A stretch of DNA of 63,847 nucleotides, counting the filler, from Hausera hauseri (Eukaryota), in NCBI GenBank assembly GCA_046269625.1. It is 12 parts of 12 records of this genome, joined end to end, with 100 filler letters (N's around TTAATTAATTAA, not from the genome) between each part and the next. Parts side by side here need not be neighbours in the genome. Positions count along the whole stretch, not along the records: positions 1 to 5,420 come from JBJURY010258511.1; 11 more parts are not named here. One strand, written 5' to 3'. Within the stretch, counting starts at the first letter, position 1. The number at the start of each line of letters is the position of its first letter. Below, one piece after another: positions 1 through 50,550 of this stretch. A program made the translations under genes and the position numbers. The notes beneath the pieces were generated by a model, which was not told where the DNA came from, made no database searches, and saw nothing but the letters and a program-made list of their open reading frames with translations.

Positions 1-2537
1 TATTCTTTCTAATGTTTTCTTCCAAGACATATGTCCGGCTAAGTATGAATCATGTTCTGACATCAGTACTTCAGTTCTTAAACTCTTTCGGATAACCATG
101 AATTTTCTTCCTTTTCGTTCGTGGTATAAGATGTCTCCTTCGTTTTCGTCATTTAAGACGCAGTATTTATGTCCATATCTGTGTAAATGTTTCTTTAACT
201 GTCGTCCTTTTTGTATAATATCCTTTTTAGCAAATTCTATAATCTGCTGGATAACTTTATCCTTTTTCTGTACTGTTGAAATCTTTATTGCCCTATCTAT
301 CGTTAACGCGTGTTGGCGGTCTATTATTTCCTCAAGTTGACTTTTCTTCGTTAGAGTAATTGCGCTCGTTTTAGTCTTTAATCTTGATAGTGCATCTGCG
401 TCGACATGTTTGTTCCCTGGCTTATATTGGAATTCAGTGTTGTACCTTGATATTTCTTCGATCCGTCTGTTGAGTCTGCATGTCGGGTTATTTGCTCGGC
501 CTCTTAAGGTTGTGATGGCCTTGTGGTCAGTGACGATTATAATTTTCTGCCAATATACATAAACGTTAAAATGTCTAAGTGCTTCTTTTGCAGTTAGAGT
601 TTCTAATTCGGTAACAGAATAGTTTTTCTCTGCCTTCTTCAATGAACGTCTTTTGTAAGCAATCGGATGTTCTAATTTTTCATCTTCTCTTTTCTGTGCT
701 AGTTCGTACCCGATGCCTTCTTTACTGGCGTCGATCTTAATTATGAAGGGTAAGTTAAAGTCTGGGTACCGCAAAACCGGTTAAATTATCAATATCTTCT
801 TCATTTCGTCGAAAGCCTTTTGTTCGACGTCTGCCCATTTCCATTTGATTCCTTTTTTAAGTAAGCGATATAAAGGTGCATTAATCTTTGAATTATCTGG
901 TACGTAGGTTGCGTAATATCCGCAGAGTCCTAACCAGTGTCTTAACTCTTTCTGATTTTGTGGTTCCATGAAATCTGATATTTTCTTTAATAACAATTTA
1001 TCAGGTTTCGATCCTCCTTCTCCAACTATATGACCCAAGTAGGATACTGCATTTTGAGCCCATTTGCATTTCTTCGGATTTAACTTCAATCCGGCTTGAT
1101 CCAATCTCATCAGTGTGTGTTCAGTATTATTTAAGTGTTCTTCTTCTGTTCACGATGTTATCATCACGTCATCTAAGTACGCAAAGGCATAATCCAGTCC
1201 CATTAACATTTTTTCATCATTCTTGTAAATATGGCTGGTCCGGTAGTAATACCGAACGGCATGACGTTAAATTCATAAACACCATTATGTGTTTTAAATG
1301 CTCTCTTATAACAGTCTTCGTCTTCTATCTCCACTTGCCAATATCCGAATTGTAAGTCCAGAGTGATAAACCATTTTGCTCCGGAGAGTCTATCCAGGGA
1401 CTCTTTTACTGATGGTAGTGGAAAGGAATCTTTCATCATAAGATTATTTAGAGCTCGGTAGTCGATACAATATCGCTGCATCGTAGTGCCTTTCTTTTTA
1501 ACCATAAGGATAGGCGAGTACCGGGATCTGTAACTGGTACTAATTATATCGGCCTTAAGCATTCGTTCGACTTCCCTTTTTATCTCAGGTCTTAGCGAAT
1601 GTTGTGGAGGGTACCATTTCGGCATCTTCTGATCCTCCAAATTTATTTCTTCATTTGAACCAGGCTTTTCCTGAGCGGAATAGTCAGTTTAACTCTTTCG
1701 CCCTACCGATGTCTTCTTCATACTTAGCAATAATCGATTTATATTGGAATAATAATTCATAAAATCGACAGTAGGATTTCGGGGAGAACTTAGTTTCAAC
1801 ATGAGGCTGAAATTTGGAATACTTATAAGGCTTTTCTTCAATGGTTATGACGACACTCTATACGTATCTCCTAGAGTAGTATAAGCATGGAGTTTGATAG
1901 GAGTTGGTGCATTATTCGCTATTCTGATCGGCACACGACCAGAGTGTACTCTCGTAAGTACGTTACTGAGCGTTATATTTTGAATTAATGTTTTCTTTGG
2001 TTCGAAATATACTGGCTGATCGTCATCTTGCTGAATTTGTGCATAAATTATTATCTCCGTTCTTGGTGGGATATTCTCCTCTACTGGTATCCACATTTCT
2101 TCAAATTTTTTATCCTTAGCGTTTTTCATGACTTTATTGGGTTTGATTTCTATTAATTTTCCTGTTTGCAAGTCAATTGCTATATTTGGTAGCCTTTGTA
2201 ATAAATCTCATCCTAGAACGACATCGTCAGTTAATTGTTCCATGATTGCAATTTTATGTCGAAACGTTTGCCAAACTAATTGGACTTCTGGGTTCCATTT
2301 AAACATCGGTTTTCACATTTGGCCAAAAGCTCCTGTACTACCTGGATCTTTCGTAGATGGCGGATATAACTGTCCTCTTAGTGTTTGAGGTATTGAATCA
2401 TTTTTGATATAAGACATCTCGGAACCCGTATTAATTAACGCAGAAACTTCCCAATCCTTGATGATGATTTTGGCGAAGGGTCTTCCATCGATCACGGTTC
2501 CAAAACAGTTTGATGCTAGTTTCAAACGTTTAGTCAC
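1..2537 (-). mobile_element. pol: Degenerate Ty3/Gypsy pol (protease-RT-RNase H-start of integrase)
   Basis: Protease ALINTGSEMS (DTG-type, ~2425); RT SPILMVKKK, RYCIDYRALN, MPFG and YLDD (~1175); RNase H IDAS, YSVTELE, TDHK; integrase HHCC start HDSYLAGH at 1-60; stops and frameshifts throughout. Confidence 0.95.
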
Positions 2538-2831
2538 CGATATTTTGTGTCAGTTTATTCTTACTTCTGGAGCGGATACTATATTTTTCGATAACTGTCT
2601 TAATTCTCCGTTTAGATATAATTAGTTATCTTCTACGTGCAATTCTTCCATTTCATGGGTACTAATTAGTGGCTCCCGGTTGTTAGTGTGTATTTCACTA
2701 TGTTGGAAGGTTTTTAATCTTGGGTTGTCCCAAACTGTCGATCTAGTCTCAATATTCTTAGGTTCTCTTGGCGAGTATATCATCTTAGGATCATCCGAGG
2801 ATTGGCAGTAACACATTTTCCGTAAAATTCC

Positions 2832-4990
2832 TTATCGTTTTGTTCCTTCATAAGGGTCTTCTACATTAATTGTCCTTTTATAAATTTCTGTCTGATATGA
2901 GCTCATGGACCGTTTGCCGCAATCGTCGTAGAATGGGCCAGTAGGAGGTAACATGGGTAACGGTGCTTTAACGACCGAGTACAGCTTATGTCTACTCATC
3001 CCTGAGAATGCTTCTCCTCCCATAGACTCGTCATCTGAATTATTTATTCGTATATTAGGTTTTGTAGACTTCAGCTTCCGTAGAAATATCGGTATCCCTC
3101 TTCGTTTACGATTATAATAACCGACATGGCGTTTTACGTCCGATTTCCATCTACTCTCTTCGTATGCTTTTAAGAATTTTCCAAAGGGCGTTATGATTGC
3201 AGTCAGAATTTTACATGAGAATCCGGTCAGTATAAATGTTTCGTATCCGTTTATTACTGCTTGGATGACTGCCTTAATCATTAGTATCAAAAAATATATC
3301 GTTAAAAATCCGGATGCTGCTTGTCCGAAAATCAAAAATCTTCACAGATTTTGTACAGTATTTCGGTCGTCACTCTCTGACAGTGGTTCACACCGAGTAA
3401 TGATTCCCATTTAACCTGATATCGTGTGTCGTCTACTACAGACGCCATAGCTCGATTTAGCTCATTTGTTCGTTATCGTGGGAAGGCGAGAAATTGTCTG
3501 AAAGCCTCAATTTCCTTCGGCCTGTATATACCTTTTGACGAGATATCTTGAAATTTATCGTCTGTAATCCCTTTAGCGAGATTCGTCCCTGTTAGCTTTT
3601 TAGGAGCGGCAGTAATACTTCCATTAGGTAAACTAACCCAGTCGGTTTCGCTACGTCTAAACATCGGCTCTCCTAAGCTTGCTTTACAATCATTAAGAAT
3701 GGTTGGTTGTGTCGCATTATCTAACAACACTCTTGTCAACGGCGTAGCTAATCTTGGAGTATTCTGATATATAACAGGAAGTTCTTGGATGCAACATTTT
3801 TCTTCTATGTTGATGGGTGCTTCTCTCTTTTCACATTCATAGGTTAGCTACACTTCGCCCGTAACTCGACCAAAGATTCCTTCCCTCATGGGAATTATTG
3901 GAGAAGCTAATTCTGGGTTTGCATATATAAGAGCTATTTTAGTTCTCATAATTTCGGTATCCAATTTGCAGTCATTCATTATCATTTTATTATATAATTC
4001 CGTTATTACGACTTGTCCTTTATAGTAGAAGTAATCGTCTCTATTTTTCAAGTAGTCCTCAATTCGATCATCCTGCGTTTCCAATTTGTAGGTTTTTGCG
4101 TTTATTTTTGTTTCCGCTACGAAGAACGCTTCATAGTTTGTGGCGAACATTACTACATCGCAACGAGTCATCATTCCTTTTTTATAAATTTTAGTCCAAG
4201 CGGATCTGAGATTAATATAGTAGGCGTAGGATGTTCTGATGCATCTTCGCGTGTCCTTGAGTTAGTTTCTGATTCATTCACGTATCGTTTTCCGGTAGTT
4301 TCATTAAACTTTATCTCCTTAATTTTGATGAAATTACAGTTTCTTCCAGAGGGAGGTTCCATATTATAACCGAACTTTTAAAAGCACATGCGCCATCTTG
4401 TAAATGACATTTTTGATTTTCAGTGTATAACTTAGTGACGCTATGGAACATTACCTTCTGTGATAGCATTTCTAATTCGTAGAAATCCACAACTACTACG
4501 TTTGGTTCTAATCCTTTTCCGGTATCGTATTCTGCCCCATTACAATGTCCGGTGTGCATATCCAGTCTTCCAGCCACTACTTTGTATGCTCTGATTATTT
4601 TCCCTGGTTGCATTTTTAATTACATGCTGTTCCATTGTACCTTTCCATTTTCTTTGGCTTGTTTGCAGTGCTGACGTTCTAAGTTCATTGGAATTAGCGG
4701 GGTAATTGGCTTAATTTTGGAAAAATGTCCGTGTATTAAGCCGCAGTGGAAAATACTGCGGGATCGTCTCAACATGCATTCCATTCCGTCTATTTATATC
4801 AATTCTTGTTGTTGATACAGGAAATAACTTTTCTCTTCTGTTTCTAGTTTGTGTGATCTGGCATCCTCGCATACTTCTAGATCCATTAAGGAATATCTCT
4901 GTTTTAATATAAACTTATCGCAATCATAGACGGTTACAGCGCCTATATGCTTTATTAACATCATCAAGGTGAGCAAGCTAATCAGATAGT
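2832..4990 (-). pseudogene. env: Chuvirus-type glycoprotein (env-like), disrupted
   Basis: Signal-like YLISLLTLMMLIKHIGA, then VTVYDC..YSLMDLEVC, CMLRRSRSIFHCG, GHCNGAEY..NVVV, CHLQDGAC..W, LYNKMIMNDCKL, GRVTGEV..YEC, CIQELPV..TPLTRVL, GIY..EIEAFRQFLAFP, and TM FGQAASGFLTIYFLILMI. Cys spacing and block order match chuvirus-like G as I recall it. Confidence 0.85.
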
Positions 4991-5420
4991 TTGATTCATT
5001 TTTGCGACTTCCAACGTCTGACGTTGCTAGGCTACGTAACATATCGTCGAGTTTATTGTTGCTTCGTTTGTCTTCTTCCTTGTCAAATAGTTTTGCCCAA
5101 TTTACTTCGCAAGGCATTCTTTTTGCTGCTGTCCGTGCTAAGCTTACAGCCCAATTGATTTCACTCTCTCGATTAGGATTTATTTTGATAGCTAAGTATA
5201 GCAATACTTTTCTTAATTCCTCATTCATGTTTTCTACCATGATTTTTTCTATTACTGTATCGCCGGTTAAGTTACTTTTTGACAGTTTAAAACGTGAACT
5301 TCTCATTATTTTGGCTGTATCTAAAATTATCTTTGCTTTATCATCCAACACATCTCCTCGAAAACTGGAATAATTCACAATTCGTATTAACTTTTTCATT
5401 AACTCGCTTAATTTTTCATT
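4991..5420 (-). pseudogene. Unknown domain in frame upstream of the env signal peptide (runs to the contig edge)
   Basis: ORF 4794-5399 reads without a stop from this region into the signal peptide and glycoprotein N-terminus. Confidence 0.6.
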
Positions 5421-5520
5421 NNNNNNNNNNNNNNNNNNNNNNNNNNNNNNNNNNNNNNNNNNNNTTAATTAATTAANNNNNNNNNNNNNNNNNNNNNNNN
5501 NNNNNNNNNNNNNNNNNNNN
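5421..5520. other. Artificial contig linker (N44-TTAATTAATTAA-N44); first of 11
   Basis: The same six-frame-stop 12-mer sits inside N runs at 5465, 13620, 17736, 22736, 27029, 31174, 37420, 46505, 51285, 55489 and 59961; sequence content changes abruptly across each. Confidence 0.98.
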
Positions 5521-7400
5521 AAAAGAAGAAGAAGCAGACGAAGAAGGAGAACGAGGAAAAGAAGAAGAAGGAGAACGAGGTGAATAAGAAAAAGAAGCGG
5601 AATAAGATAAAGAAGAAAGAGAAGATGAAGGAAAAGAAGAAAACTAAGGAGGAGAAAAAGAAGAAGGAGAAAAAAAATAAGAAAAAAATGACAAGAAGAA
5701 GAATAAGAAGGAGCAGAGGTAGGCGAAGAAGAAGAAGAAAAAGGAGAAGAAGAAGTATAAGGAGAAGAAGAAGCATAAGAAGGAGAACGAGGAGAAGAAG
5801 AAGAAGAAGGAGAACGATGAGAACAGGAATAAGAAGCAGAAGAAGAAAAAGAAGAAAGGAAAGAAGAAGGAAAAGAAAAAGACGAAGGAGAAGGAGAAGA
5901 AAAAGAAGGAGAAGAAAAAGAAGAAGGAAAAGAAGGAGATGGAGAAGACGAAGAATGACTAGGAGGANNNNNNNNNNNNNNNNNNNNNNNNNNNNNNNNN
6001 NNNNNNNNNNNNNNNNNNNNNNNNNNNNNNNNNNNNNNNNNNNNNNNNNNNNNNNNNNNNNNNNNNNNNNNNNNNNNNNNNNNNNNNNNNNNNNNNNNNN
6101 NNNNNNNNNNNNNNNNNNNNNNNNNNNNNNNNNNNNNNNNNAACGAAGAAGAAGAAGAAGAAGAAAAGGGCGAAGGAGAAGACGGCGAAGGTGGAGAAAA
6201 AGAAGAAGAAAAAGAAAAAAACGAAGAAGAAGAAAATGAAGAAGAAGGAGAAAGAGGAGAAGAAGTAGAATGAGGAGGAGGAGAAGAAGAAGAAAAAGAA
6301 GAAAAGGAAAAAGAAGAAGAAGAAAAAGAAAAACAGAAGAAGGATAAGAAGGAGAAGCCGAAGGATGAAAAGAAGAAGAAAGAGAAGAAGAAGAAAAAGG
6401 ACAAGAAGAATATGTAGGACAAGTAGAAGAAGAAGAAGAAAAAGAAGATTGAAGAAAAGAAGAAAAATTACAAGAAGAAGAAGAAGAAGGAGGAGGAGAA
6501 AGTGGAGAAAAACAAGAAAACGAAGAAAAAGAAGAAAGAGAAGGAGCAGAAGGATAAGGCGGAGAAGGAGGAGTAGAACAAGAAAAGAAGAAGAACAAGG
6601 AGAAGAAGAAGAAGGAGAAAGTGGAGAAATAGAAGAAGAAGCAAAAGAAGAAGAAGAAGGTGAAAAAGAAGAAGAAGGAGAAACAGAAGAAGAAAAAGAA
6701 AAAAAAGAAAATGAAAAGAAGAAGGAGAAGAGGAGAAGAAGTAAAAGGAGAAGGAGAAGAAGAATAAGAAGGACAAAAAGCGAAAGAAGAAGAAGGAAGA
6801 GAAGAGGAGAAGATGAAGAAGTAGAAGAAGGAGAAGGTGAAGGGTGAGAAAAAGAAAAGAGAGAAGAAGAAGAAAAAGAAAAAGAAGAAAGAGACGGAGG
6901 AGAAGAAGTAAGAGGAGAAGGACAAGATTAAGAAGAAGAAGAAAACGAAGAAGAAAAAGAAGATGGAGAAAAAGAAGAAGAAGAAGAGGGAGAAGAAGAA
7001 GAAAAGTACGAATAAGAAAAAGGAGAAGGCGGAGTAGAAGAAGAGCGAGAAGAAAGAGAAGGAGGAAAAGGAGGAGAAGACAAGAAAAAGAAGAAGAAGT
7101 GAGGGAAGGTAGAGAAAAAGAAGAAGAAAAAGAAGAAGTAGGAGAAGAAGAAAGAGAAGAAGAAGTAAAAGGAAAAGGAGTAGGATGAAAAGAAAAAGAA
7201 AGAGAAAAAGAAGGAGAAGGAGAAGAAGATGGAGAAGGGGGAGAAGAAGAAGAAAAAGAAGAAGGAGGAGAAAAAGTAGAAGAAGTAAACGAAGAAGAAG
7301 AAGAAGGAGAAGAAGGCGTAGAAGACGACGACAAAGGACAAAGGGAAGAAGAAGAAGTAAACGAAGAAGAAGAAAAAGGAAACAAAGTAAAAGAAGAAGA
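5521..7400 (+). repeat. Degenerate (GAA/GGA)n purine-rich low-complexity tract
   Basis: About 1.9 kb of almost exclusively A/G triplets with an internal gap; it generates the spurious poly-R/K/E/L/F/S ORFs. Confidence 0.97.
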
Positions 7401-9649
7401 AGCCCTTCATGCTCGATGAGGAAGGAGGAGAGGAGACTGAAGAGGTGGAAGCAAAGGAGGCAGAGCCAGAGCTCGGAGATGACAACATCACGCAGGGACA
7501 GCAAGGGCAAGCGCGAAAGCAAAAACAGGGATCGTCCTCTGTGGACCAAGAGATTGCCAGGTCTAAGATAGAAGTTTGTTTTATTTCTTTTTAATATAAT
7601 TTTAGAAGTTGTATTTTAATATGTACGTTAATGACCATATTTTTTAATCATGCTGATCGTGTGCTTTTACAACATGAGTTTGACCTAACTCTACCTATCC
7701 CATTGAATTCTGATGTATGCCAAAAGCCCAGTGTCAAACTTAAAAAGTGAGTTTTCCTTTGCACGTTTTGGCACCTCATTTTCAGGAGTGCATTGAGTCC
7801 TGGTCTGCAGAAGAGGATAATGAAGTAAGCTATGTATGTGATGTTTTATTTTAGGGTTCACACCAACAATTATTATAATAATCGATTAATTAAGCATTCA
7901 TACACACACTAGTTACTATACAAACTTTAGACAATGCACAAAGTAAACACAACACTGATTAGCAATGATGAAACTAAAAATAATAAGAAAACATGTGATA
8001 TAAAGACTAAAGAATTGTGTGAGAATAAAAACATTTTGTTTATTTTACAGTTGTAACTTAAAGTCCAACACCCATCGTAACAGCCCCAAATGCCCTTCAT
8101 GGGTAATGACTGCTCCGGTAAAACTGGAGGCTTCTCCGCCAGCTCCGTGAGAGTCCTGGCTGTCCTGGCTCTTCTCACAGTGGAACATACCCGGAATGTC
8201 TCACCATACCTTTTATTTCCTTTTATTACCCTAAAATCCAAATGCCTCCACTGCTGACTTGTAATCTTCCAGAATCTTCCGGTTTAAAATGTTTCCAATT
8301 CCGGTAGAATGAATTCAGCTAGAACAAACTTTACCTCCTGATGGTAATTATACTAGTTGGGTTTCAAAATAAAGTTATAGGGTCCTAAGTAAATGGTTAT
8401 TATTGTTTTTGTCACACAATAATATAATATTATTTGACATAGGACATCCTAGACCAACATAGGTTGTGTTTGTACTTGTGTCAACAGAAATGATGACAGG
8501 AATTGAGAGCCGTTTCTTTGAGGGACCAAAGGAGCCCACGGTACTCTGACAGATTTTGACAACGGCCTATACAAGTGGATTTATTTTTATCAGGGTGTCT
8601 GCGGGGTATTGAAAGTTATTAAAAGTTGATATATGAAATTTGGAAAAATTAAGGGTGTAAAAAGTATTGAATTTATGAATAATGTGTAAGTTAGTCTTGA
8701 ATAGGTTACTTGAGGGTCTTAAGTTTTGTCAGGCAGGACAGATTTAAGTTCTTCGTCTCCGCTGTGGATTTCCTGAAAGTGAGGAGGAGGGGAAAAAAAA
8801 AAACGTGTGTTGTTGTGGACTTCCATCCGGCTGGAAGCAGAGCAGAGTAGGGCGGGTCCTACAGTCTGTAAACAGAGACAGACCTCAGGACTATTTCCAA
8901 GATGACGCCTCGACCCACTACCCTAACAGAGCCGCTCTCTGCCCGCATCTCCACAAACGTCAGTGTGTTCCGAGCTTCATTGTTGTTTTACAGACATATG
9001 TCATCATGTGCAACTTGTGCGTGTGACCAAACTCTGGGTCCAAGAGCTCCGCTGTGTGCGCGCCCTCAGCCTGTTTCTCTCAGCGTGGATGGGGGAGGCA
9101 GCAGCTGCTTTCTTCTTTTTAGTTTTTACCGTTAAAACATGAATATTTGTAGATCCCAGATTACAGCAAAGACATGTGTCTGTTTAAATTGAATTTTCCT
9201 TAATCTCACCAAGTTCCCTCTGTGGTTCAGTTTCAGCTGGTTTTAGTTTATCATAAATATATGTACAACTTAATCCTACAAACAATTAGCTGTTTGTTTG
9301 GATGTGCTGAACTTTTTATAAATTTAAAACTAAATTGAGAGGTAACTGTACTGTGATAAATATAATTCATACATTATCAAATATGAAAAATAAATAGTCG
9401 TAATGAATTAGGATCCCGTATTTTATTTGAACTGACATTATAGTGGAGAAATCTGTCAAATTCAATAAATTATATAAGAATAATTTATACTTTTCAAAGA
9501 ACTTTCTGTAAATACTTGAAATACATTATAGTAAACTACAGAAAAGTTAAAACAAAACGTCTTTCCTTCAGAATGTTGTTGGTTGTGGTAGTTCAAATTT
9601 ATTGAAAGTTGCATGATTTTTTATTTTTGTGTTTGTATAAAGGTATAAC

Positions 9650-9865
9650 TGGGCCTTGATTTTACTGGCCATCCAGCAGCAGAAAACAAATGTTTCTAGA
9701 ACCTCAGTAGAAGTGAGGAACTACAAAGTAAAATATCAATCATGGCAGCATTACCCTGCAGCAGTAAAGCCCGTGACTGATCCCTGGTCACCTGAAAAAA
9801 CCTCCGGTTGAAGCTGTCAGCGATTAACACAGCCTGCAGCGGCTGCTCCTCCTGCCCTTCTGGCA
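9650..9865 (-). pseudogene. EIF2B5: eIF2B epsilon N-terminal retrocopy fragment, copy 1
   Basis: [48 protein letters not shown], frameshifted and intronless. Confidence 0.88.
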
Positions 9866-10564
9866 TAAGCTGTCTGATGCCCTGGGTTTTGGTTCCAACG
9901 TCTGGTGTCTCGTTTGTCGCCGTGTTCACCTTGTGTGGCACCTCCAATAGCCTGGCTCGGCGTGCCTGTAAAGATATGACTGTCTGCCTCTCACCCCCTC
10001 CTGCACAGGGTTTTCTGGCATGGGCAGAGCCACCTCCTTTCCAGCTGCACCTGGTTCCAGTAATGAGGTTCAAACATATTTAAGGCCAGAGATGAGAGCC
10101 AGTCTTCGCTGGAACATTCTGTGAATTTGGTACAGCTTGTTCAGCCTTTAAAGTGATCTCCTGAAACTTTAAAACCAACCTGAATTGCTTCTGTGTTTTT
10201 CCAAGGACTCCCTTTGTGGATTTTACTAGACCTCCTCTGCTCAGCTCCTCCTGAGAACCTCTGCCTAAACCTGCCATTCACCTCTCCGCCCTGCACCTCT
10301 CCTCCAGAAATACTCACCTGCACCTCTTGGATATCCACCTGTCTCTTTGGAATTTACGCTCCTCTCCAGGCCAGCCTCCTCTGCGATACCTGTAAGCGAG
10401 AACATATTTCAAGATTAACTCCCCTGGAACTATTGTTGCCTTTATCTTCCTCTCCCCACAGGACTTCTCTGTAAATAAAACTCACTTAACTTTTCATACT
10501 GTGGTCTCCTCCTCATTGTCAGTTGTGCCACCTTCTGGGTACTCTTCATTTTACTAAACCTAAT

Positions 10565-10830
10565 AGTGCCGAGCGGTACAGATCTGAGGTGATGATGTGG
10601 ACTGTTTGGACAGCTGGGTCGGTACCACTTTTAGTTCAGCAAGTGGGCCTTGATTTTACTGGCCATCTAGCAGCAGAAACAAATGTTTCTTGAACTCCAA
10701 AGTAAAATCAATCATGGCAACATTACCCAGCAGCAGTAAAGGCCATGGCTGATCCTTTGTCACTGGGAAAAACCTGAAGCTGTCCGCGATCATTACAGCC
10801 TGCAGCGGCTCCTCCTGCCCTTCCTGCACC
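10565..10830 (-). pseudogene. EIF2B5: eIF2B epsilon N-terminal retrocopy fragment, copy 2
   Basis: Near-duplicate of copy 1 with deletions, extending to KAHLLN*KWYRPSCPN..HIITSDLYRS. Confidence 0.85.
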
Positions 10831-11719
10831 ATAAACTAAGGCTGGGTGAGNNNNNNNNNNNNNNNNNNNNNNNNNNNNNNNNNNNNNNNNNNNNNNNNNN
10901 NNNNNNNNNNNNNNNNNNNNNNNNNNNNNNNNNNNNNNNNNNNNNNNNNNNNNNNNNNNNNNNNNNNNNNNNNNNNNNNNNNNNNNCTCCATCTTTGGTT
11001 GTGCCTGCTGAGCTGGTAAACACATGGCTAAATAAGAAAAATATATATTTGTATCTTTGTTGTTTTTTTCTTGAGAAAGCTAGGAGCTGATGCTGTCTCT
11101 GCTTGATTCTGGCCGTCTTGCCTTCAGGTTTAAGCCTTTTGCTACGTCATTGCCCTTATATGGAGTGGAGCCATTTTTTCCCATCAACAGCAGGAAAACT
11201 TTCTAAAATCATTCTTACAACAATTTAGCTTCATTTAAAAACATTTCAATTAAACATACATGGAATTATTTTTATTCATCTACCATATTTTGCTGGATAT
11301 AAAAATTGAAAAAATGGTGGGATATGGACTTTAAAATTTGTATAGCTGTTCAAGGAGTAATAACTTAATGTTTTGTGTCTTTTGTAATGTCTTTGGTGTG
11401 TGAAAATGACATTCAAATTGTTTTGACTACACCCCATCCTGTACAAACTGACACCAAGGCATCCATTGAAGAGGTACATTGTTAAGTTATTCTATTGCAA
11501 TATGAAATACTACTATAAACTCTTCTGTTTGAGCCTGTTGCTAATAGTCAAACTGTTCTATCTCCATCTTGATATTCACACCACAGTTTGTCTCGTGTTT
11601 TTGTGTGGTCTTTGTCTTTTGTTTCTGGCCCTCCGTCCTGTGTTTTTGTTTGTACCCCCACCTCCCACCCGTCTTAGGAACTTTTAATCGTCGGGAGACG
11701 ATTCTTTGAGGGGGGGTAC

Positions 11720-12113
11720 TGTCATGATTTGATGTGTTGTCTGTTTCCTGTGTCTATCTCCCTCTTGTGTCTTCTGGTTGTCATCACTTCTCATTTTCCC
11801 TCAGGTTGCTTCTGTGTCTTTCCCTCTGTCACCACGCACCTGTCAGTAATCTCAATCAGTAATTTCCATCAGCTGTTGCTCATCTCTTCTGTGTATTTAT
11901 TCTGCCTCTTCTCATTCAGTCTCCGCTGGTTCATTGTTTGGTTTACCCTGCTGTCTTGGTCTCTTGTCCCATGTTCATTTTGGATTTTGCATTTTGGATC
12001 TTGTGAGTATTGCTGCCTTGTCAGCCTTTTTGTTTATTTTTTGTTAATAAATAGTTTTCATTTATTCCTCGAGTCTGCCTGCATTTTGGGTTCTCCCAGC
12101 ACCAACCGTGACA
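11720..12113 (+). mobile_element. Gypsy-type 3' LTR preceded by a polypurine tract
   Basis: GAGGGGGGG PPT at 11708-11716; TGTCATG...CGTGACA inverted termini; AATAAA at ~12046. Confidence 0.8.
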
Positions 12114-17791: not shown

Positions 17792-18047
17792 CCGAGCCCT
17801 AATTATCGATTTTTGATTTTTCGAAAATCCAATATTATTGATTTTTGCACACTTGCACATGTGCTGCAAACTTGCACTTGCACCAATCGATGTGCACTGA
17901 TGTGGACTATCGATTAGCACTTTGTCCCGATCGATTCGATCAATAGTGCTCTATGCAGTGATCGATATGTGAAAAGTGCAAAAATGTGCATAGCAACCGT
18001 GCCTAGGGGCACATGTGCATAATCGATTTATCGATTACCCCCCCCCC
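17792..18047 (-). mobile_element. PPT and start of the 3' LTR of the contig-4 Gypsy element
   Basis: G10 tract (18047-18038) follows the end of ORF3, then non-coding sequence rich in ATCGAT and TGCAC motifs. Confidence 0.65.
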
Positions 18048-18132
18048 AGGTGGGACCGAACCGCCATTGTACCCCTACTTACGGTCATTCCAATGTTGTT
18101 TGCAATCCATTGCGGTAGTTTAAGTGTGGTCT

Positions 18133-20225
18133 TTAAATTAAATATCGCAATGTGAGAATTTTACGGTTTCTTTGCTCTCCGTATTTGAGTATGTTACGTA
18201 TTTTGGTGTCTTCGCTTATTCGATCCATTGAGTTGTCTAAATGTGCTATTATCTTGTCATAAAAGGAATAGGTCATATTCTTTTCTGCAGTACTGAGTCT
18301 GCGTATCCATTTATCGTCGTCTGTCTTATCCATCGAAATTGTATCAGGTCGTTTGAACATGTCTGTTCCTCGGAATTTGGGGGTTAAATTCATTGACTGA
18401 TTGCTTCCGAGTTCTGCAGCTTGATTAAGTGAATTTCGTAGCATTGGTTCGACTTTTTTATGCATCTAATTGGCGTTGCACATCGCATTTATATTCTACA
18501 AAATCTATTGTAATTGGCCAATTAATCAAATTTTTGAAACATTTGGTTATCGTCTCCTCATTGGTCGTTATTTTATAGGCTGCATAAATTAGCACGATTG
18601 GTCCGAGTAAGAGACTGGATACTAGGACGTAATTCGTCATAGTCTCTTTAAAATAACTGCAAAAATCTTTATTTGCTAGTTCAGAACCACTATAGTGCAC
18701 GTTGCCTCACTTTTATTCTCTTCTGTAATTTAGTTTCTATCTAAAAGAAGTAATGTTCAGTCTGATAGTGTTGGGACTGAAATACTCTGATTTCTAATTT
18801 CATTTCGTTCCTCAATTCCACTTAACTGTGGGCACGGTTGATTACCTCTAATTATAGTAATATGATTCATAATGACCTTTCTTTTTACACTTGGGTTTTT
18901 TACCCAATGTAACGACCATCATAAGGATTATACCAATTCCTGCTACTATTACAAATGTCCACCAATATTGTGAGAGATACATTTCGGTTGTCTTTGTCGT
19001 GGTCGTGGTTAATTTCCATTTCTCATCATCATCATTGTGTCTTATATGGAGGTATTGATCTATTGCTGGTTGTTTTTTTATGGCTACAATTTTGGAGTTA
19101 TCCGGAGTTTCTATCCTTACTAAACAATTGGTATGTGGCGTTAATTTTCCTCAGAAATTCCGTCTATTTGTCTCGTACTTGATAATAACTTTGTCACGAG
19201 AACCAGTAAATGTTATCTCAATTCGGTATGTATAAGGTGTTAATTTGAATTTTATTGGAAATTCTTTCATCCGTTTTCCGTAGAATACATACCTATTTAC
19301 TTTAGGTTTAAACGTATGTGGCTGATTCTGCGATCTGAGCAGATCATCTCCCCTACCCATAATTGGGGGTTCTTGCAAAGGGGACGTAGTTTGTACTTTG
19401 AGTGTCGTTGTCAGTTTTACAGGCGTCCGAGTGGGTGTTGTACGCTGGGCGAAAGTTGGAATTGCTATGTTTGGTTTTACAGAAAAAAGAATGGGCAAAT
19501 GGTGGGAATGTACCCTAATTGATTGTCTAGTTGCCAGCGTTCGATATGCATCAAAACGGAGTTTATACCATATGTATGGGTATAATGCACATGACCGAGT
19601 ATTATTGCTTTTAAGATAACAGTAATATAGTTGTGCTATAACTGCGGAAACAGATCGAGCCATATGCTGATTTCGTAGTTGTTGGATAGCAATTGTGTGG
19701 TACGGAAATTCATACATGAGATTTTCGGTTTAAGGCTTATACCTGAAATTTCAATATCGTTCTCCAAAAATCGAGCAATAAAGAATCGCGTTCTACTATA
19801 TCTGGGGTTTCCAACGTTGTCATGTCTTGATAATTGGGAGAAAGAAGGATCACGTTGGTTTCCCAAGTAGCAATATCCTTGTGGTGAGACTTCAGTACTA
19901 CATAGTAGGTGTAAGTTGTTCTGTAATTAAATGGACAAAACGTTGTTTTATGCCTCTCAGTAATGGTACAGATAAACGATGTATTGTGGTTTGGTGTAAA
20001 GATAAAATTCACCTCGTATTGTACGAATACTGGTGTGTGAGTCCTCAGGCAAATGTTAGGTCTACTTTTGTCGATATGAGCAATAGAAGCGCGTGTGATC
20101 AACTCTGTATTGACTATTAAAATTTTGTCAGGGTTGGTATCTACAGTTGAAATTTTTACAAAAATTGTCATTAGAATGAACAAAACGATACCCAAGTGTC
20201 TACCCAAGCTGAGGTGCACTGGGTA
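18133..20225 (-). pseudogene. Orphan env-like ORF3 (signal peptide, T/P-rich stretch, TM, tail), disrupted
   Basis: LGIVLFILMTIFVKIST signal; sequons NHNTS and NNTRS; TTPTRTPVKLTTT; TM YVLVSSLLLGPIVLIYAAY; lies between integrase and PPT. Confidence 0.6.
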
Positions 20226-20245
20226 ATTCCCATTTTCTGGTTTAT

Positions 20246-22691
20246 TCAGAATACGAGTTTAAGTAGAGCGGCTACTATTTGGTCTTCCGAATTAGATGTA
20301 TCTAGATTTGTTTCCCGAATAAATTCGTTATATGATACAGGCGCTCGAGTGACTCTTTGAACAGAGACCGCTTCATATTTGTTTGATCCTTTCTGGATAA
20401 AAAGTGTCTGTGGGCGCACATTAACAATTTTGTACGGTCCTTGTCCAGTACGTGTTAATTTTAACGATTTTCCTTTCTTTGCAGCGGAATAATGAACCGT
20501 TATGTAATCTCCAATTTTGTAATTATGTGGTCGTGCCTTCTTATTGAACTGTTTCTTGTATTCTGCTGTATTTTTCTTGAAGTTCTTTTGCTTCCTGAAA
20601 ATATTCAAGTCGTTGGAGTAAATTCTGATATTTTTCATCCATATGGTCACTTGTCAGTAAGGATGATGGTAATAGTTCCGTATCTAGCGGCAACGAAGGT
20701 AATCGTCCAAACATTAATTTGAAAGGTGAATGATTGATGCCTTTTGCAGGGATAGTATTAATTGCAAAGGATGCAGTTTTTAGATGTTTTTGTCAATCGT
20801 TTTTGGAAAGAATGCCTTGGATTGTACGATTCATCCTTTCAACCATATCATTACATTGAGGGTGGTAGGATGTAGTTAACAGATGTTTACATTAGAATAT
20901 TTTGGACAGTTTCTCGAAAAATCCGCTGATGAAATATGGTGCGCGATCAGTTAACAACTGTTTCGGTGTGCCCAGTACGGCTACAATCTCATGGAAGAAA
21001 GCCTCGGCCACAATATCACTAGTCATGTTTTTTAAGGGTACTAGTAAAACATAGCGAGAGAAATAGTCACTAAATGGTAATATGTATTTGTATCCTGAAT
21101 TGGAAATTGGGAAGGGTCCAGAAATATCCATTAAACACACTTCCATTGGTTTGCATGCTTCCGGTAAGCTACCCAGAAAAGGTTTTGCACAAAACCCTCT
21201 ATCCTTTCTTGTAGCGCACATTTTACACGAACGTACCCATCCTTCAATATGTTTATTTATTTGAGGCCAATAATATTTTGCTGTTATACGTTTCAAAGTC
21301 TTATTCAGGGATGGATATCCAGCTAAGTGTGAATCATGTTCTTATATCATAACAGATTTAATTGCTGATGTGGGTACAATGATCAATTATCGCTCACCGA
21401 CTTTTAGTCCTAAAGTACTGTTTTCAATTTCTAGATTCTCTCTGTGTTTTGCATAAAATTGTTGAATGGAATTTAATACTGGTCCAACTAACTGTCCATT
21501 GATTAATTGCTTGACTTGAACAATTTTAGGTCCTGATTTTGTAGATTTTCAATATTCCGGATCTCAATTTGTCGTTGATCTTGTAACATATCGTTAATGA
21601 TTTTTTCATTCAATTGTTTTTCGCTTTCGTTATCTGTTGGTTTATGTACTGCGGCTACTATTCTTTCGTAAGGTATTCTCGAAAGTACATCTGCATTCGT
21701 ATTTTCTTTTCCTGTCGATATCGACATTCAAGATCATAATTCAAAAGCTCTAACTTCTATCGCTGGATTCGGCTTGATACATGTCTATTGTCGGGGCGCA
21801 GGGATAGCAGTGCCTTATGATTAGTAAATATTATAATTTTATGACCGTAAACATAATATTCATAATGTCGCAATCTATCCCTAATGGCTAGTTGTTCTAA
21901 TTCAGTAGTGGATTATTTTCGCTCTGCATTATTTAAACTTTGTCCTCCATACGCAATCACATGCTCAGTTGTTTAGTGAGGGTTTTGCTGAGCTAATATA
22001 TAACAAATAGCTTTTATACTGGCGTCTGTTTTCAGAATGAATGGAAGTGAAAAGTCTGGATATCTGAGTATCGGTGCTGATACCATTCGTCTTTTGACCT
22101 CGTCAAATGCATTCTGGTTCTCTTCTGTCCATTTCCATTTTTGATCCTTTCTTAATCACTTATATTGAGGTTGATTAATTTCTTCAAAATCAGGTATAAA
22201 TGTAGCGTAAAATCCTCCCAATCCTAACCAAACTTTTATCTCGTGCAAATTAGTTGGTGGGGGATATTTCAATATTTTGGACATTAAATCGGAACTAGTG
22301 GATATTCCTTGATTAGAAACAACAAATCCAAATTATCTAACTTCCTTCTTGTACCATTCGCATTTTTTGTGTTTAATTTTAACTTAGCAAGCCTGATTCG
22401 ATCAAACACTTCTTTTATTTCTACTATATGTGCTGACCATATTTTGGATGCGATGAGAATGTCGTCAATGCATGATAATCCTCGTACTCCTTTTAAAACT
22501 AAACGAATAAATTCATGGAAGAAGGTGGGTGCCGTTTTCAACCCAAATGGCATACGTGTAAATTGATAAACTCCTGTATGGGTCTTAAATGCAGTTTCCC
22601 ATCGATATTCTTCTGCTATGAGGATTTGCCAAAAACCACTTTATAAATCTAATGTGGTGAAATATTTACAATCCTTTAGTTCGTCTGTAAT
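20246..22691 (-). mobile_element. pol: Degenerate Ty3/Gypsy pol (RT-RNase H-integrase)
   Basis: LDLKSGFWQI, MPFGLK, CIDDI; TDAS, YSTTELE, NADVLSR; integrase YYWP..SCKMC, MDISGP, TDRA, YHPQ and the GPY motif. Confidence 0.95.
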
Positions 22692-37375: not shown

Positions 37376-39541
37376 NNNNNNNNNNNNNNNNNNNNNNNNN
37401 NNNNNNNNNNNNNNNNNNNTTAATTAATTAANNNNNNNNNNNNNNNNNNNNNNNNNNNNNNNNNNNNNNNNNNNNGAAATAGTGCAGTACTAAAGTATAA
37501 ATTGTCTTTCTGTCACTGAGTGTCAGCTCTTATTGATGAGCCCTAAAAGAGCTTGTAGAAGGGGCAAATGTTTCCTGCTATCCCAGGAAAAAGGGTAGCC
37601 TGAGGCCCTCCAGGTGGTTACGCAATGCTTGACATCTTAGAATTGATCCACCACTTTGTCAGGGACCATTGTGATCCTCTGCTAGTTAGCTGACAGATTT
37701 TTCCCTGTCTTGCCCAGGAGCCACTGCATGAACATAGACAGAGATCTTGTCTGACAGGATTGGCTATGATTTGCTGAAAGCCCTCTCAGTGCCTCAGAAT
37801 CTCTGCACCAAGGGCAGATGCATGAAGTCAATGTATCTCTCATCAGATCCTGATGCAACTGAAAGGCTATACAATGCAATACTGGCCTAATACCTATATT
37901 CTCTGTGATTCATTTTATGCTTAGGAACAACACATCGTAGAGCTGTCTTAAATAAATGGGTAATAAAGAGTATGAAGTATCTTTCTACAACTAATCAGTT
38001 AAATAGGCTTTATTTTTTTAATTGAGATTCTGAGGCACAGTACATTATAGCTGTTCTTCAGTGTCAGGGCGGTAGTACAATGCTTGGCCTGTTAGAAATG
38101 ATCCACCACTCAACTGATAACCATACTGAACTTCCGCCCATTAGCTGGCAGGTTTCCTGGAGACATGGGCAGAGGATCTTGGCTGTCTATGATTCGTCAG
38201 TCCTGGCACTATATTAAGGCCAGCTATGGGTCGCCGCCACACAGCACCTTCGTCTTCTTGGTGGAGATATAGCTTAGCTTGAAAATCAAAATTGGACATT
38301 TAAGAGCAAGATTCTGAGGAAGCTGCACAGAAATCGCTTTCTCATCCCCTCTAACTACTTCATGTTTTGGACAGTGTTTCTTTGTAATGCTTTCTTGCAA
38401 TGAGTGACTGAAAAAAATAGTCCACTGTGTACTGCAGCAAGTCAAAGACATGTATTATTAAAGTCTTGCTGGTTCAAATCCCTTAGAGTGCCCTTTTTTT
38501 CTGTTTCCAGCATGTTGTTCATCTTTTTGTCTACTTCTTTCTGTTCTAAAAAAATACTGAAAATCACATATCCTTTTCCTCCCATTTCACAGTTATCTGC
38601 TACGTTTTGCCAGTGCGTTGCATAAAATCCCATTAAACTCTGACAAAGTTTGTGAAATTTTTATTGTCTCTATATTCTTCAGATTTTTATCCTAAGCACT
38701 TTCACATTGCAGATACAAAAACCTGATGAATATTTTCACTGTTGGAAATTGGTTACTACAATGATTGTTTCCTTGTTACAAGTATAGACTTGATTGACTG
38801 TATCAGTTCCAATAACTATTCAGAATATTGTTCACTACTGGACCACTCGAAATATATTCGTTCACAATTCCACCACTGTATTTAAGAATTTTAAAGTGGA
38901 AAATTTTTCGTTCATTTAATATTGGTTTATAATGTTTTCTTGATATTCTGCCAATTTGAAGTATATTCGCTTCTTAAATGTTTTTAAAATGACATCAAAG
39001 ATTAGTTTCTATGACTAAATTGAATGGATTTTATATTTTCATTCTTCACGAATACGCCCAATTATTAATTTTCATAATAGCAATAAATTTGATGAATTTT
39101 TTGTTTCAATATGTTCATTTTCTACGAGCATTAAAAATTTGAAAATTTTGTTAAATTAAGTGAATTAATGGGAAATTTGGGTACGTGGTTATTATTTAAT
39201 AAATGTTGATTACAAATTCATGAAAAATGTTTTAAAATTTGTCATGTAATTTGTAAGAATTTTTACTTATATTATATTATTCTTATGATTGTTGAAAATA
39301 CTTCTGTCATTTTCACCCGGACAGTAGTTATATTTTTTGAATGTTTCTGCAATTTCTTCCCGCGTAATTCGGTTATTGGATTGATTGTTTGGTGTCAATG
39401 TAAGATCTAGGAAGGAATAGGTAGGATCCGGTGTAGATGGCGTTTCCTGTTTTATGTGTTCGCCCACTGGCTCCTTTTTACGACTTAATATTTTTCTCTA
39501 AGATTTTATCGTGTCTAGCTGTGATATCTGGCATAATTCGC

Positions 39542-42500
39542 TCACAATGATTTAAGATTTGAGATTCTGGAGCAGTATCCACAATGTGCAGTTAGGCCTT
39601 GTCTTGATCTAAAATAACGGTTGTTAAGTGTTAGTAAGTTATTTCTACCTAGATAAGCAAAGCGCCAAGTATCATATTTTAGGCTAATATTATGAATAAC
39701 CTTATTAGATAGGTAATGTTTAGCAATCATTATTGCAAATTTACCCTGGTAGTTTTTATTTTCTTTATTAGCGGGAGGCCTCTTCCACTCATCAAAGTAG
39801 AAAGTATGGACAAACTGATGTAGGATTTTACAGCAAGAGGACATTTTGAGGCTATCAATCTTACAGAGTTGATCCTGTGTTTTAATGGTTATGAGAATCT
39901 CATTTTCACTATTGGTTTGAAAATGAGCTACAATACCTAATCGCCTCAGGTGTTTTACAGAGCTTCTAATTTTAGTCCACCACGTGAGGTGGGGGCATTT
40001 GAGTGGTTTAGATATTCCATTCAGCCAGTTCAGGGCATCCTCAAAAGAGGTGTTTTCTGAGAACCTGTCCTTAACTATTTGATGTAGGTAATTTTTAGTT
40101 ACGTGTCTTATCAATGGGTCATGGCTATTAAATAGTTGTAGTGCGTGACTTAGGTTTTGTACAGCATATTCGTTTTTACTAGACATGAAGCCAAAGCCTC
40201 CCTGTTTGGTGCCTACATAGAGGAAGTCGTTTCCAGCATCACTTGTGGGGGGTTTTAGTATTATTTTCTTAAGTATTCTTATAAATTTGCGGTCATAGTT
40301 AAAATATTCACGAGCTTTTCCGCCACTCAACTCAGTGTGCAGAGAAGTCCACGGGACTATTCGATTACGGAAATGAAATTGAAGTTTAGAGTGGAGAAAT
40401 ATTTTGTAAGCTGATATTTTTTGCGCTGGATGCAGTGCGCTATTAGCTATAGTTTCCCAGTTGGAAATGTTCTGTTCTAGTAGTTCTTGGAGGCCTTGTT
40501 TTTTCTCATGGCCAAAGGGCACTCCTAAGTAATGGTAGTATTGTTCGCCTTTAATAGTGGGTATGGTTTGGCCGTATAATTTAAGTTCCGGCATTTCATC
40601 ACTTTTATTCATTGAAAAGTATCCGCATTTGGTGGGATTAAATATTAGGTTGACCTGCTCCGCTAGTTTTGCTATGTGTTGTATTGCCTTATTTAAGTCG
40701 TTGTACGATTTTGCTATATATACTATGTCGTCTGCATATGCTAGACAACGAATAGGTTTATCAAATAGGATGACTGGATCGTCGATGATTTTATCAGCTT
40801 CAGTTAGTAGAAAGTTTATAATCAGGGAGAAGAGCGTCATAGACATTGGGCATCCCTGTCTAACGCCACGTTTAATGTCTAATTTTGGAGTTTGGTAGTT
40901 AGCATAGGAGTATGTAGTTGAGCAATTTTTATATAGTCTCCTAATGAGATATCTAGTATCCTTATTGAGGCCTAATTTTTTAAGAGTGAAGTTTATGAAG
41001 TGATGGGGTACTGACGGGAAAGCATCCTTAAGGTCTATAAAACATATGTGGACATGATTGTTTTTATGCCTAATAGTTTGTTCATAGAGGCAGGTAAGTA
41101 TAAAGTTATGCTCAGCACACGCATTGGGTGCACTGATCGCTTTTTGGAGTGGATGGAGAAGGTTTCCAGCTGAGATCCAGAGGAGGAGTCTTTCGTTTAT
41201 GATTTTAGCAAACAGTCTATATGCCGTGTCTAGCACTGCGATAGGCCTCCACGAAGAGGTTAAGTATGAGTATTCCTCCTTTCCCGGTTTTGGGATGAGG
41301 GTTGTCCTATAGGTCTTCCATTGATCTGGAATATCGCAGTTTAGGAGGATATGGTTAAATAATTTGCCAAGTGCCTCGAGTTGTGGATCCAGGATCTTCC
41401 ATTGATCATATTTAATACCGTCCTCTCCAGGACTACTATTAGCAGTAGATTTTAAGGCCTTTTTAATTTCGTCCGTGGTGATAATTTCTCTGGTGACGTT
41501 ATCTTGAAAGTATGGTACTGAGAGAAAGGTGTATCTAGTGTCTATAATGTTGGGAGTATTTTGAGTATAGTGGTCAATGAAGGCTTGCTTTGGAGGAAGA
41601 GCAACCTCTATGGTGGGGTGCAAGATCTTTTGTATCGTAAGTTTTGGGTTTCTTAAATATTCCAGACGTATAGACCATTCTTTGTTGTTTTCTTTATATT
41701 TTGTCATTGGGTGGCGTATATTAGTTAGTTTCATTGGAAAGATTTCCTCTTTAGCTCGCATGGCTTCCTTAAGAAAGTATGTTGATCCCATTCCAGGTTC
41801 ATTGAGATAAAGCAATGCTTTCTCAATGAGTGGATGGATTTGTTTATTTTTATTAGGCCTAAATTTTCTGTTTTTGGCATATTTTACGATTAATTGATTA
41901 ATCTCTTCTCGGAGATTATTCACTTCACAGTTCTTGAAGTTTGTATTTTTATGTTCAGTGTAGTGTCTGGCATAGTGTATAATAAAAACACCTGAGTCGC
42001 TTTCATTATTCTGAGTTGGGTAGTTAAGGTTTTGTTCTAACGCAAGGGATTCGTACACTGTTAAGTAGGAAAAGTGATAAAGTAATTCTGCCAACCTACT
42101 CGCTATAGTGTAATGTTCATCAGTAATGGTAGTTGAGGATGGATCCAGTATTAGGTATTTTTGAAGGGTTCTATTTACTATAAACAGAAGCCAATGATTA
42201 CGGCCCACACGGATTGGCCAAAGTGCTATTTCCCAGTCACAGAGTTTAGAGAATGGAAAATTATTGTATAGATTTTTAAAGTCGTTTTGGAGCAAAGATT
42301 TTGCCGTAAGTGGGCTAATGAAGATAGTGTCTGCATTTCTATTGGTGCAAAAATATCTGAGACATAGCTCCATTACCCACTCTGAAAGTCATTTGTCATT
42401 CGCGTCTTTTTCCTGTATAGGCAAGTCTAAGTTTAGGAGTTCTTCTGTAAATATTTCATTGGCGGGGTGGGTGTTTATGCAGTGTCTATTTATTGCATTT

Positions 42501-45500: not shown

Positions 45501-46460
45501 TTATTTTTATTTCTACTCGTGGTATCACCTGAAATTATGATGGTTTCTTTAGCACTGGGAGGGCATAAATGAGTGACCATTAGTGGATGAATTATAGATA
45601 CGTTTAATGTTTTCCAGAGTCGCAGAAAACTAGAAGGCTGCCTCTGCACAATGAAATGTTGTATCGCTTTTATGAAATTAAATATTTCCCCTTCGGTTTT
45701 AAAGGTGTAGGTTAGTTTTGGTGTAGAGTCATCCAATAAGGGCCTCACAGTCTTAATGGCAAACATACGGGTGGTTAATTTTTTTAGGAGCGCTGTAGAA
45801 AACTGCTGCGTCTTGATGTAGTGGGTATTTTGTCCCATAATAAGTCTATCTAAGTCAGCCAGTAGTATTTCTGCCTCTCGAGGTAGTGAAGTTGCTGTGT
45901 CATAGACGTATTGCTCAGCGTCTACTTCAGGCAGGTTTAAATTAGGTCGTTCAGGTAACGTAGTTTTCTTGGCGGCTTCTGGATTCACCATGTTATCAAG
46001 TGTTCCATTGCAGAAAGAGTCAATCAATTTAGTCAGATAATCCTCAGGAAGACAGAAAGATTTTGCCGCTCGACGTAGGAAAGTTAGGATTACCTCTGCA
46101 CGTGTTATTCTCGCCGGTCTTTTGACGTTTGACGAAGGTACTCCTGGCAGTAACCTATAAATTCCTATACATAGTGTACTTATTTCTTGGAGTACTTTTT
46201 CCGAGATACAGGTTTTGTCGAATTTGATCCATTTGCAACTATTTGACATGAGAAAGATTTTTATGTCTATAATTATACCACAGAGTATAGATTTTGGGGA
46301 TATATTATTATTATCAATAAAAGATAGAGGGTTTGATTTAGTAATTTGAGCATATGAAGGTTTACTCTTATGAGGCAGAGATTTTATTACTTTGGCATGT
46401 TGACTCAACTTAATTGGCTGTCCAGGAGCGGGTGGCTTATGCACTATTAAGATGTTACTA
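39542..46460 (-). mobile_element. NeSL/R2-group non-LTR retrotransposon; one ORF of about 2300 aa broken by a single TGA; endonuclease end missing
   Basis: ORFs 46444-42389 and 42373-39542 share a frame across K*LSEW; three Ulp1-like domains; two C2H2-like fingers; RT SPGEDG, WRPIA, GVRQGCPMS, YADD, YLG, GGFG; ends at HCGYC without the full CCHC or RLE. Confidence 0.92.
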
Positions 46461-47139
46461 NNNNNNNNNNNNNNNNNNNNNNNNNNNNNNNNNNNNNNNN
46501 NNNNTTAATTAATTAANNNNNNNNNNNNNNNNNNNNNNNNNNNNNNNNNNNNNNNNNNNNCAGTACAGCGAATATTCGCTCAGAAATTCCCGGTTGTATA
46601 ATGAATACAAGTTACATTATCTGCGCAACGCTATTCAATTGCCATTGACGCAAACGGTCAAAATCAAACCGGTGAAATATGGTTTATTGGTGAAAAAGAT
46701 CAGCGACGATGATTTAGATACGATGAAGGACACAATTAGAAAAGCTGACAGTGATTTGGCGTTGAGTATAGATATTTGAGATACATCGTCGATTTTACTC
46801 AAAGGAAATAAGGCGAAAATTGTCGGTTCACATGGCGGAGAGACAGCAGCAAAAGTAGTTTTCCCACCGGAAGAAACTAAAGGCCATCTAACATTGAAGT
46901 CTAAAGGATACAAGGGTCTGCACGGCGTTAAATCACCAATATGGAACCTGGGAAAGTTTACGCTGATTGGACTTACTTTTCTTTTGATTTTAGCTTATGA
47001 TCAATAAATATAATTGAGTTTATTTTTTATATTGTTTAGCTCATTAAATTATATATATGGATAAATAGATAAATTAAATTATAATAAACATTAGCTAAAA
47101 GCATTAAACAATGTGCATTATTTGCAAAATATTCCAATA

Positions 47140-50100: not shown

Positions 50101-50550
50101 ACCAGAATACTGTACAGAATACAATATTCGTCGTCAGTATTTTTTACATTCACTACTGCATGTGAATGCTGCAGGGCTGTAGGTGACGGTATTAGTGATC
50201 GCCGGACAGGTAAATTATGTCACTCGACTTTGTTACAATAAAGCCGAGAGTGACAATTCGTATAATTAGACATCCTCTATCCTTTTCAGTGTAGTTGGCG
50301 ATTTTCTCCTCGAACGCCTCACCTACGTCGTCAATAAAATCTTCGGAATACGGTATGTCTCGATGTAACAGGTACCATTGTTTCCTGTCACCTTCCAAAT
50401 TTTCAAAATCTGCAAGTGCATAATATTGCACTTTGCAGTGGTCATGTTGGAATTTGGCCACCTCTGTTTCCAACCGGTTACGCAAATGACTGGGTGCATA
50501 CGTCATTTCAGTTGCTGTTTTCGCCGACATGTCTATCTTTATGTGCACGT
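47140..50550 (-). mobile_element. polB: Polinton/Maverick (adintovirus-like) protein-primed DNA polymerase B, heavily disrupted
   Basis: DYDHFTCQYLGAACNPCNL, FYNFREYD, RFLDSLQFL, YLKLDV, YIDINNLYGW, FKLKNNLLYGK, HPLYS..FKDE..LRPKCYS. Confidence 0.92.

Follow-up and report, generated by a model that had tools for sequence, protein, structure and literature searches.

A decayed Ty3/gypsy element in a Hausera hauseri assembly with a fusion-protein gene upstream of, and in frame with, its protease gene: a probable Burro-like polyprotein

Can a Ty3/gypsy retroelement carry its envelope (Env) gene ahead of pol and in the same reading frame, and, if so, how could the resulting proteins be made? This question is raised by the first contig of the window, that is, the whole stretch of 63,847 nucleotides, filler included, analyzed here from the Hausera hauseri assembly GCA_046269625.1. 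In the window, 12 short contigs are linked by runs of N, and the element in question occupies positions 1-5420 on the minus strand. We interpret it as a decayed Ty3/gypsy copy with a fusion-protein gene located upstream of, and in frame with, the protease (PR), and consider it likely that its ancestor encoded a single Gag-X-Env-Pol polyprotein, as in the planarian element Burro.

Env and pol in one frame

Domains were called by three-frame translation combined with Pfam scans, and by reading a single frame with X at the stop codons. The domain order proposed in the initial annotation was confirmed by Pfam: on the minus strand, region X is followed by a signal-like segment, an Env domain of the PF24664 family, a transmembrane (TM) segment, a linker, the protease, a further domain, reverse transcriptase (RT), RNase H (RH), and the start of the integrase (IN). 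The pol order PR-RT-RH-IN is that of the Ty3/gypsy group (Metaviridae), with a partial integrase, of which the zinc-binding start alone precedes the contig end at base 1. Since both ends of the contig are truncated, gag, the long terminal repeats (LTRs), and the flanks are outside the view. The location of Env upstream of pol is that observed in GAG-ENV-POL errantiviruses with an Env of the glycoprotein B (gB) type.

The Env gene is represented by three PF24664 matches with E values of 2.7e-16 (positions 5420-4314), 1.9e-25 (4261-3345), and 2.4e-8 (3341 onward), which jointly span positions 5-601 of the 653 positions of the profile. The claim of a full ectodomain holds for its length, but the ectodomain is broken by three frame breaks, at about 4358, 4183, and 3344, and by four stops. 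As in these errantiviruses, it is flanked by a signal/TM segment and a TM segment and has conserved cysteines, all 14 cysteines that are invariant across eight intact Envs being retained in the window copy. The window Env is about 30% identical to those of the relatives described below, with 24-34% identity in the ectodomain and 30-44% in the TM region.

The frame is constant from position 3341 through the protease, with in-frame stops in the linker at 2834-2832, 2624-2622, and 2552-2550, as had been noted from the sequence at the outset. From the TM segment through the protease it contains five stops in 378 codons, whereas the other frames contain 35 and 32, and no shuffle out of 5000 had as few. 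In the linker (3170-2493) there are three stops in 226 codons versus 18 and 24 in the other minus-strand frames, a number equalled in one of 5000 shuffles. Env is therefore in frame with pol, as in Burro-like elements, in a single frame that runs from the TM segment to the protease across the three stops. The density of the linker stops is indistinguishable from that in those coding parts of the copy that are anchored by homology (8 of 1262 codons; Fisher p = 0.23), and hence we read them as decay comparable to that seen elsewhere in the element. Pol is broken at about 1847, 1687, and 1208 and contains additional stops; the protease match to RVP is weak, below the curated cut-off, and its catalytic motif is degenerate. 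Altogether, six frame breaks and scattered stops interrupt the window copy, which is dead and decayed.

Intact proteins with the same chain were found in several searches. With the TM-to-protease stretch as query, a full HMMER search produced 20 matches; the domain scan covered ten of these, and four of the ten carry PF24664 above the cut-off, upstream of the protease. A search among long proteins with the Env of one relative, P0006, yielded seven matches, all with protease domains and six with both RT and integrase. Another Env search found none among 1,228 longer-protein candidates, its length limit of 2,000 residues excluding the giant relatives. A scan of metagenome contigs gave one locus, L001, out of 47 pattern matches, and the locus scans of genome contigs and viral contigs gave nothing. 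Env followed by protease in a single stop-free chain occurs in ten natural proteins, eight of which extend through RT. The longest, P0028 (4,029 amino acids), represents 20 near-identical cluster members, and it opens, like P0030 and P0031, with a Gag-like domain (E values from 5e-12 to 8e-8 against a Pfam-Gag protein) and a CCHC knuckle. The window pieces are collinear with the relatives at 24-44% identity, and the junction of a hydrophobic segment with YDC recurs in all eight intact relatives examined. The ancestral single Gag-X-Env-Pol polyprotein suggested by the initial annotation is well supported, because stop-free natural relatives share the exact chain and, in three of them, a Gag-like domain and a CCHC knuckle stand at the start.

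The junction is not unique to this contig. Contigs lying along the stretch number 20,678 in sequencing run X1 and 1,568 in run X2 (the better-matching run may be the source itself and so is not independent); they cover all 30 bins, with many copies over the linker, and most are less than 95% alike. Thus this is an old, abundant family rather than a one-off junction. At three stops of the window copy nearly all of the other depth differs from it, as seen among the 40 listed of 1,539 differences, and length differences among copies occur at or near all six frame breaks.

Table 1. Features of the element, in the order in which they are read on the minus strand
Feature	Positions	Strand	Remarks
Region X	4995-5420	-	142 stop-free codons preceding the signal peptide; truncated at the contig end; helical by prediction
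Internal signal-peptide-like hydrophobic segment	4938-4988	-	Hydropathy 1.96; YDC start of Env a few residues on
Env ectodomain, PF24664 type (Monjiviricetes fusion glycoprotein)	3342-4937	-	Four frame pieces, four stops
Env TM segment	3252-3302	-	Hydropathy 2.2; follows the conserved F-x-x-F-G-Q motif; PF24664 positions 544-601
Env tail and linker	2493-3170	-	Same frame as TM and protease; three stops
Aspartic protease domain	2190-2492	-	PF00077, E 9e-4; alignable to the protease that precedes RT in the relatives
PR-RT intervening domain	1848-2150	-	Alignment with relatives; position is that of the dUTPase-like domain in Burro
RT core	1024-1502	-	RVT_1, E 7.9e-18 and 3.1e-5; frame break near 1208
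RNase H, Ty3/gypsy type	442-762	-	PF17917 (RT_RNaseH), E 1.1e-26
Integrase zinc-binding domain, start	1-90	-	PF17921 (Integrase_H2C2), E 5e-5; cut by the contig end, first 30 residues

Two parts of the chain have no assigned domain. Region X has no stops in frame, compared to 21 and 12 in the other frames, and it gave no Pfam match at the cut-off and no usable Atlas match. Its model is of low confidence (predicted local distance difference test score, pLDDT, 58; best fold-search Z 7.3), and with such a model there was no BCL2 protein among the matches listed that would favor a BCL2-like reading. In the intact relatives a ubiquitin-like segment, identified by eye in the alignment, precedes Env; a ubiquitin-like profile has no match anywhere in the window, where just 142 pre-Env codons survive. 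The domain between PR and RT is labeled dUTPase-like by position only, with no Pfam or PDB support.

Placement of the lineage and competing explanations

The placement of the element was analyzed in RT-RNase H trees, with 11 of 132 proteins dropped for short coverage; IQ-TREE was run on 38-39 hand-picked rows, and Burro's own RT is absent from these trees. Eleven relatives form a fully supported clade. The window RT groups with the RT of another contig of the window, 17792-22691 (support of 99 in the Shimodaira-Hasegawa-like approximate likelihood-ratio test, SH-aLRT; both branches are long and the tree is a quick one). When the window RT was constrained to join the relatives, the likelihood was above that of the quick free tree, and the constraint was not rejected by the approximately unbiased (AU) test (p-AU = 0.87). 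The best 120 of 2,155 matches in an RT-RH search included none that is close (30-44% identity), one with PF24664, and several with Gag domains. The window element represents a divergent lineage, for which a sister relation to the relatives is plausible.

Several observations weigh against a Burro-like polyprotein in this lineage. In four trees the window RT falls outside the 11-row clade, on a long branch and with no supported neighbor, and its identity to the RTs of the relatives (40-45%) is no higher than that to ordinary gypsy RTs (37-44%). Region X does not match the pre-Env parts of eight relatives, and the linker has no sequence similarity to their linkers. None of the three linker stops is among the 40 listed of 1,539 differences between copies, and no listed contig piece covers the entire stretch; hence a conserved stop in the window lineage is possible. 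Finally, a hydropathy scan at a threshold of 1.75 missed the Env TM segment in P0028 and, in L001, the first signal.

Among the alternatives, the one that survives best is an independent origin, in which a pol without a sister relation to the Burro-like clade gained an Env of the planarian type through exchange or capture. We consider it unlikely, though it has to be taken seriously: the RT branch is long and unplaced, elements of the GAG-ENV-POL kind do not group in a single clade (as described in PMC13524379), and in P0053, which belongs to another clade, an env of another subtype precedes pol. On the other hand, a single clade is not rejected by the AU test, and the branch of the window copy is lengthened by its decay. 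Further, contig 17792-22691, with its RT grouping with that of the element, has post-integrase signal and TM segments like those of the Burro-like clade, and a third contig of the window carries a Gag like those of P0028 and P0030 (E 4e-12). An independent origin is also compatible with the polyprotein mechanism.

A second explanation retains the same gene order, but takes one linker stop as real, so that Pol is regulated by readthrough, frameshift, or splicing and Gag-Env is made in excess of Pol. Most LTR elements produce less Pol than Gag, the window lineage is divergent, and its linker is unrelated to, and longer than, those of the relatives (301 residues from the FGQ motif to the first protease motif here versus 127-293 there), with a stop density (3/226) about twice the background (p 0.17-0.23). 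This explanation is nevertheless improbable: none of ten relatives has a stop at the linker, the frame is open on either side of each linker stop, and comparable stops elsewhere are private to the window copy in the three cases where the table of differences shows them. A chimera, in which an Env-bearing piece was joined to an unrelated gypsy pol via nested insertion, recombination of dead copies, or mis-assembly, is very unlikely, as, despite the window RT not lying inside the clade of the relatives in free trees, the liability of high-copy repeats to mosaic assembly, and the lack of a listed record covering the whole stretch, a chance join is unlikely to hold one open frame over 378 codons (none of 5000 shuffles), the Env pieces run collinear with the same relatives as the pol pieces, the constrained RT placement is not rejected, many copies cover the linker, and no LTR-like repeat lies inside.

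Two other contigs of the window resemble parts of such elements. In the one at 17792-22691 (minus strand), a decayed gypsy RT-RH-IN is succeeded first by a signal-like segment, then by a beta-rich stretch, and last by a TM-like segment; this contig is 64% identical to the element at the DNA level across 423 bases. The contig at 51341-55444 (minus strand) encodes the decayed Gag related to those of P0028 and P0030, followed by long helical regions, and may be a related element's 5' part.

At 37476-46460 (minus strand) there is an RT of the non-LTR type, with two long open reading frames (ORFs; 1,356 and 948 amino acids) and Ulp1/C48 peptidase domains, which we take to resemble NeSL-type elements. 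The contig at 27085-31129 (plus strand) has another gypsy integrase and then broken ORFs without Pfam matches, possibly a 3' env; pieces at 46561-51240 and 59056-59493 resemble a DNA polymerase of the protein-primed type (judged by eye) and an ORF with a double RING finger. The contig at 5521-13575 is CpG-depleted and vertebrate-like, beside non-depleted ones. The window is a mixture of organisms, since the CpG observed/expected ratio is 0.39 in this contig, as in vertebrate DNA, and 1.12 in the element contig; the latter value fits an unmethylated invertebrate genome and says nothing narrower about the host. The element contig itself contains no host gene, no long internal repeat was found within positions 1-5420, and an Rfam search gave no match.

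Predicted passage through the membrane

Signal peptides direct a growing chain to the endoplasmic reticulum (ER), and a hydrophobic TM segment stops its transfer. Given this behavior and the hydrophobic segments of the element, we suggest that the Gag-X-Env-Pol chain was threaded through the ER membrane, with Gag-X in the cytosol, Env in the lumen, and Pol again in the cytosol. Gag and X would be translated in the cytosol until the internal signal segment targets the chain to the ER, where signal peptidase is predicted to cut at this segment, immediately before YDC, creating a luminal N-terminus of Env. The TM segment would then stop the transfer, so that the tail, PR, RT, RNase H, and integrase are back in the cytosol. 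Cleavage by the element's own protease could then separate the Env tail from Pol and the signal stub from Gag. The amounts of Gag, Env, and Pol made at one membrane would be equimolar (one-to-one), and such synthesis may favor particle budding there. Spread between cells would likely occur via a class III (gB-like) fusogen, a fold suggested by the models of family members in PMC13524379.

The intact relatives have two further kinds of features, a second membrane cassette and extra proteases, neither of which falls on the element contig. Two extra hydrophobic segments, a second signal and a TM segment, follow the integrase in six of the seven Env-Pol relatives that run past it. More than one protease motif (two or three) precedes RT in six of ten relatives, and one follows RT in four of ten. 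The second ectodomain of the relatives has a recurring motif; in the Atlas, its ten best named matches were all FN3, with lead-level scores of 0.89-0.90, and the single-sequence model of the post-integrase ectodomain of L001 has a pLDDT of 33. A profile of these FN3-like segments, whose members were chosen by the motif and whose leave-one-out matches are partly circular, had no match in the ORF that follows the integrase in contig 17792-22691.

A bolder proposal, which we advance tentatively and put somewhat short of an even chance, is that the whole virion is made from one multi-pass ER polyprotein consisting of Gag, signal, fusogen, TM segment, Pol, second signal, FN3-like ectodomain, and TM segment. 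The second membrane protein could then be the attachment or immune-decoy partner of the fusogen, the duplicated aspartic proteases beside each membrane crossing could free Pol in the style of flaviviruses, and the window lineage would be a deep separate branch in an unsampled host. If confirmed, the FN3-like membrane protein after the integrase and the additional proteases would be features for which no description was found for any LTR element in the text of the literature searched, its figures and sequence files not being covered.

Some relatives have peculiarities of their own. In L001, positions 2-12107 hold an ORF of at least 3,426 amino acids with ubiquitin-like and BCL2-like parts (both identified by eye), Env, and three protease motifs. 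There are two signal-ectodomain-TM cassettes, one before pol and one after, and a separate DEDD exonuclease ORF after the polyprotein (PF00929, E 1.4e-5); no LTR pair was found in L001, and a PDB sequence search with its Env gave nothing better than E 0.02. Three proteins (P0005, P0027, and P0029) have C2H2 zinc fingers in the Env-pol linker, between two protease domains. P0012 and P0053 have Env before the protease in a single chain, with a different Env subtype, and P0053 belongs to another RT clade. Finally, P0006, an animal-type retroelement protein, is deposited under a metagenome-assembled genome of Flavobacteriaceae, probably as contamination.

The layout in known elements

The initial annotation did not recognize the layout among described LTR elements, and regarded the capture of chuvirus-like glycoproteins as described mainly for BEL/Pao elements; neither the novelty of the layout nor this view of capture holds. 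Nematode elements with a continuous gag-env-pro-pol ORF were reportedly described by Sacco et al. in 2022, and the flipped-order elements in that study are said to be confined to chromadorean nematodes. The BEL/Pao elements with a chuvirus-like glycoprotein of Dezordi 2020 are said to be of the Anakin type.

The closest described system is the planarian Burro/GYPSM1, published in 2019, whose mononegavirus-like env lies between gag and pol in the same frame (PMC6431247). Like the window element, it has env in frame upstream of the protease in one ORF, an Env similar to the fusion glycoproteins of mononegaviruses, a domain located between PR and RT, and a high copy number, with decayed copies in a related planarian (PMC6431247). 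In planarians, RNAi of smedwi-2 lifts the repression of BURRO1 (PMC8532177). It differs in its ORF of 4,873 amino acids with MATH, BIR, ankyrin, and BCL2 parts, and in a length of up to 30 kb (PMC6431247). None of these parts is visible on the cut contig and region X matches none of them, Burro being compared by its description.

Elements of more than one clade, from Nematoda, Bryozoa, and Platyhelminthes, are reported to have the GAG-ENV-POL order, and nematode endogenous retroviruses with a flipped env/pol order are cited in the same paper (PMC13524379). It describes many gypsy pol genes as accompanied by an env of the chuvirus-like/gB type (PMC13524379), so that BEL/Pao elements are not the main setting of such capture. 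The BEL/Pao elements with a chuvirus-like glycoprotein cited there share the broad glycoprotein family with the window element, but have a BEL/Pao, not Ty3/gypsy, pol (PMC13524379). The Schmidtea mediterranea errantivirus_1-6, with the GAG-ENV-POL order and an HSV (herpes simplex virus)/gB-type Env of cysteine class C1a (PMC13524379), are similar to the window element in gene order and Env type. By eye, the short motifs at both ends of domains I-II and the TP-containing insert of their Envs match those of the intact relatives, and they recur in decayed form in the window copy. Errantivirus_1-6 span 14.5-18 kb including flanks (PMC13524379), fitting ORFs of about 2,800-4,000 amino acids. The main text of that paper, as distinct from its figures and sequence files, which were not covered, contains neither the terms 'polyprotein', 'single ORF', 'fused', and 'ubiquitin' nor any mention of a second membrane protein or of additional proteases.

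The env-before-pol layout is therefore real but already published, and the window copy adds a divergent lineage to it. With the layout in print, the main additions of this study are this divergent, once very abundant lineage and the ten intact natural polyproteins. The latter make it testable how particles are assembled, and enzymes released, from a one-to-one Gag-Env-Pol chain that would cross the ER membrane.

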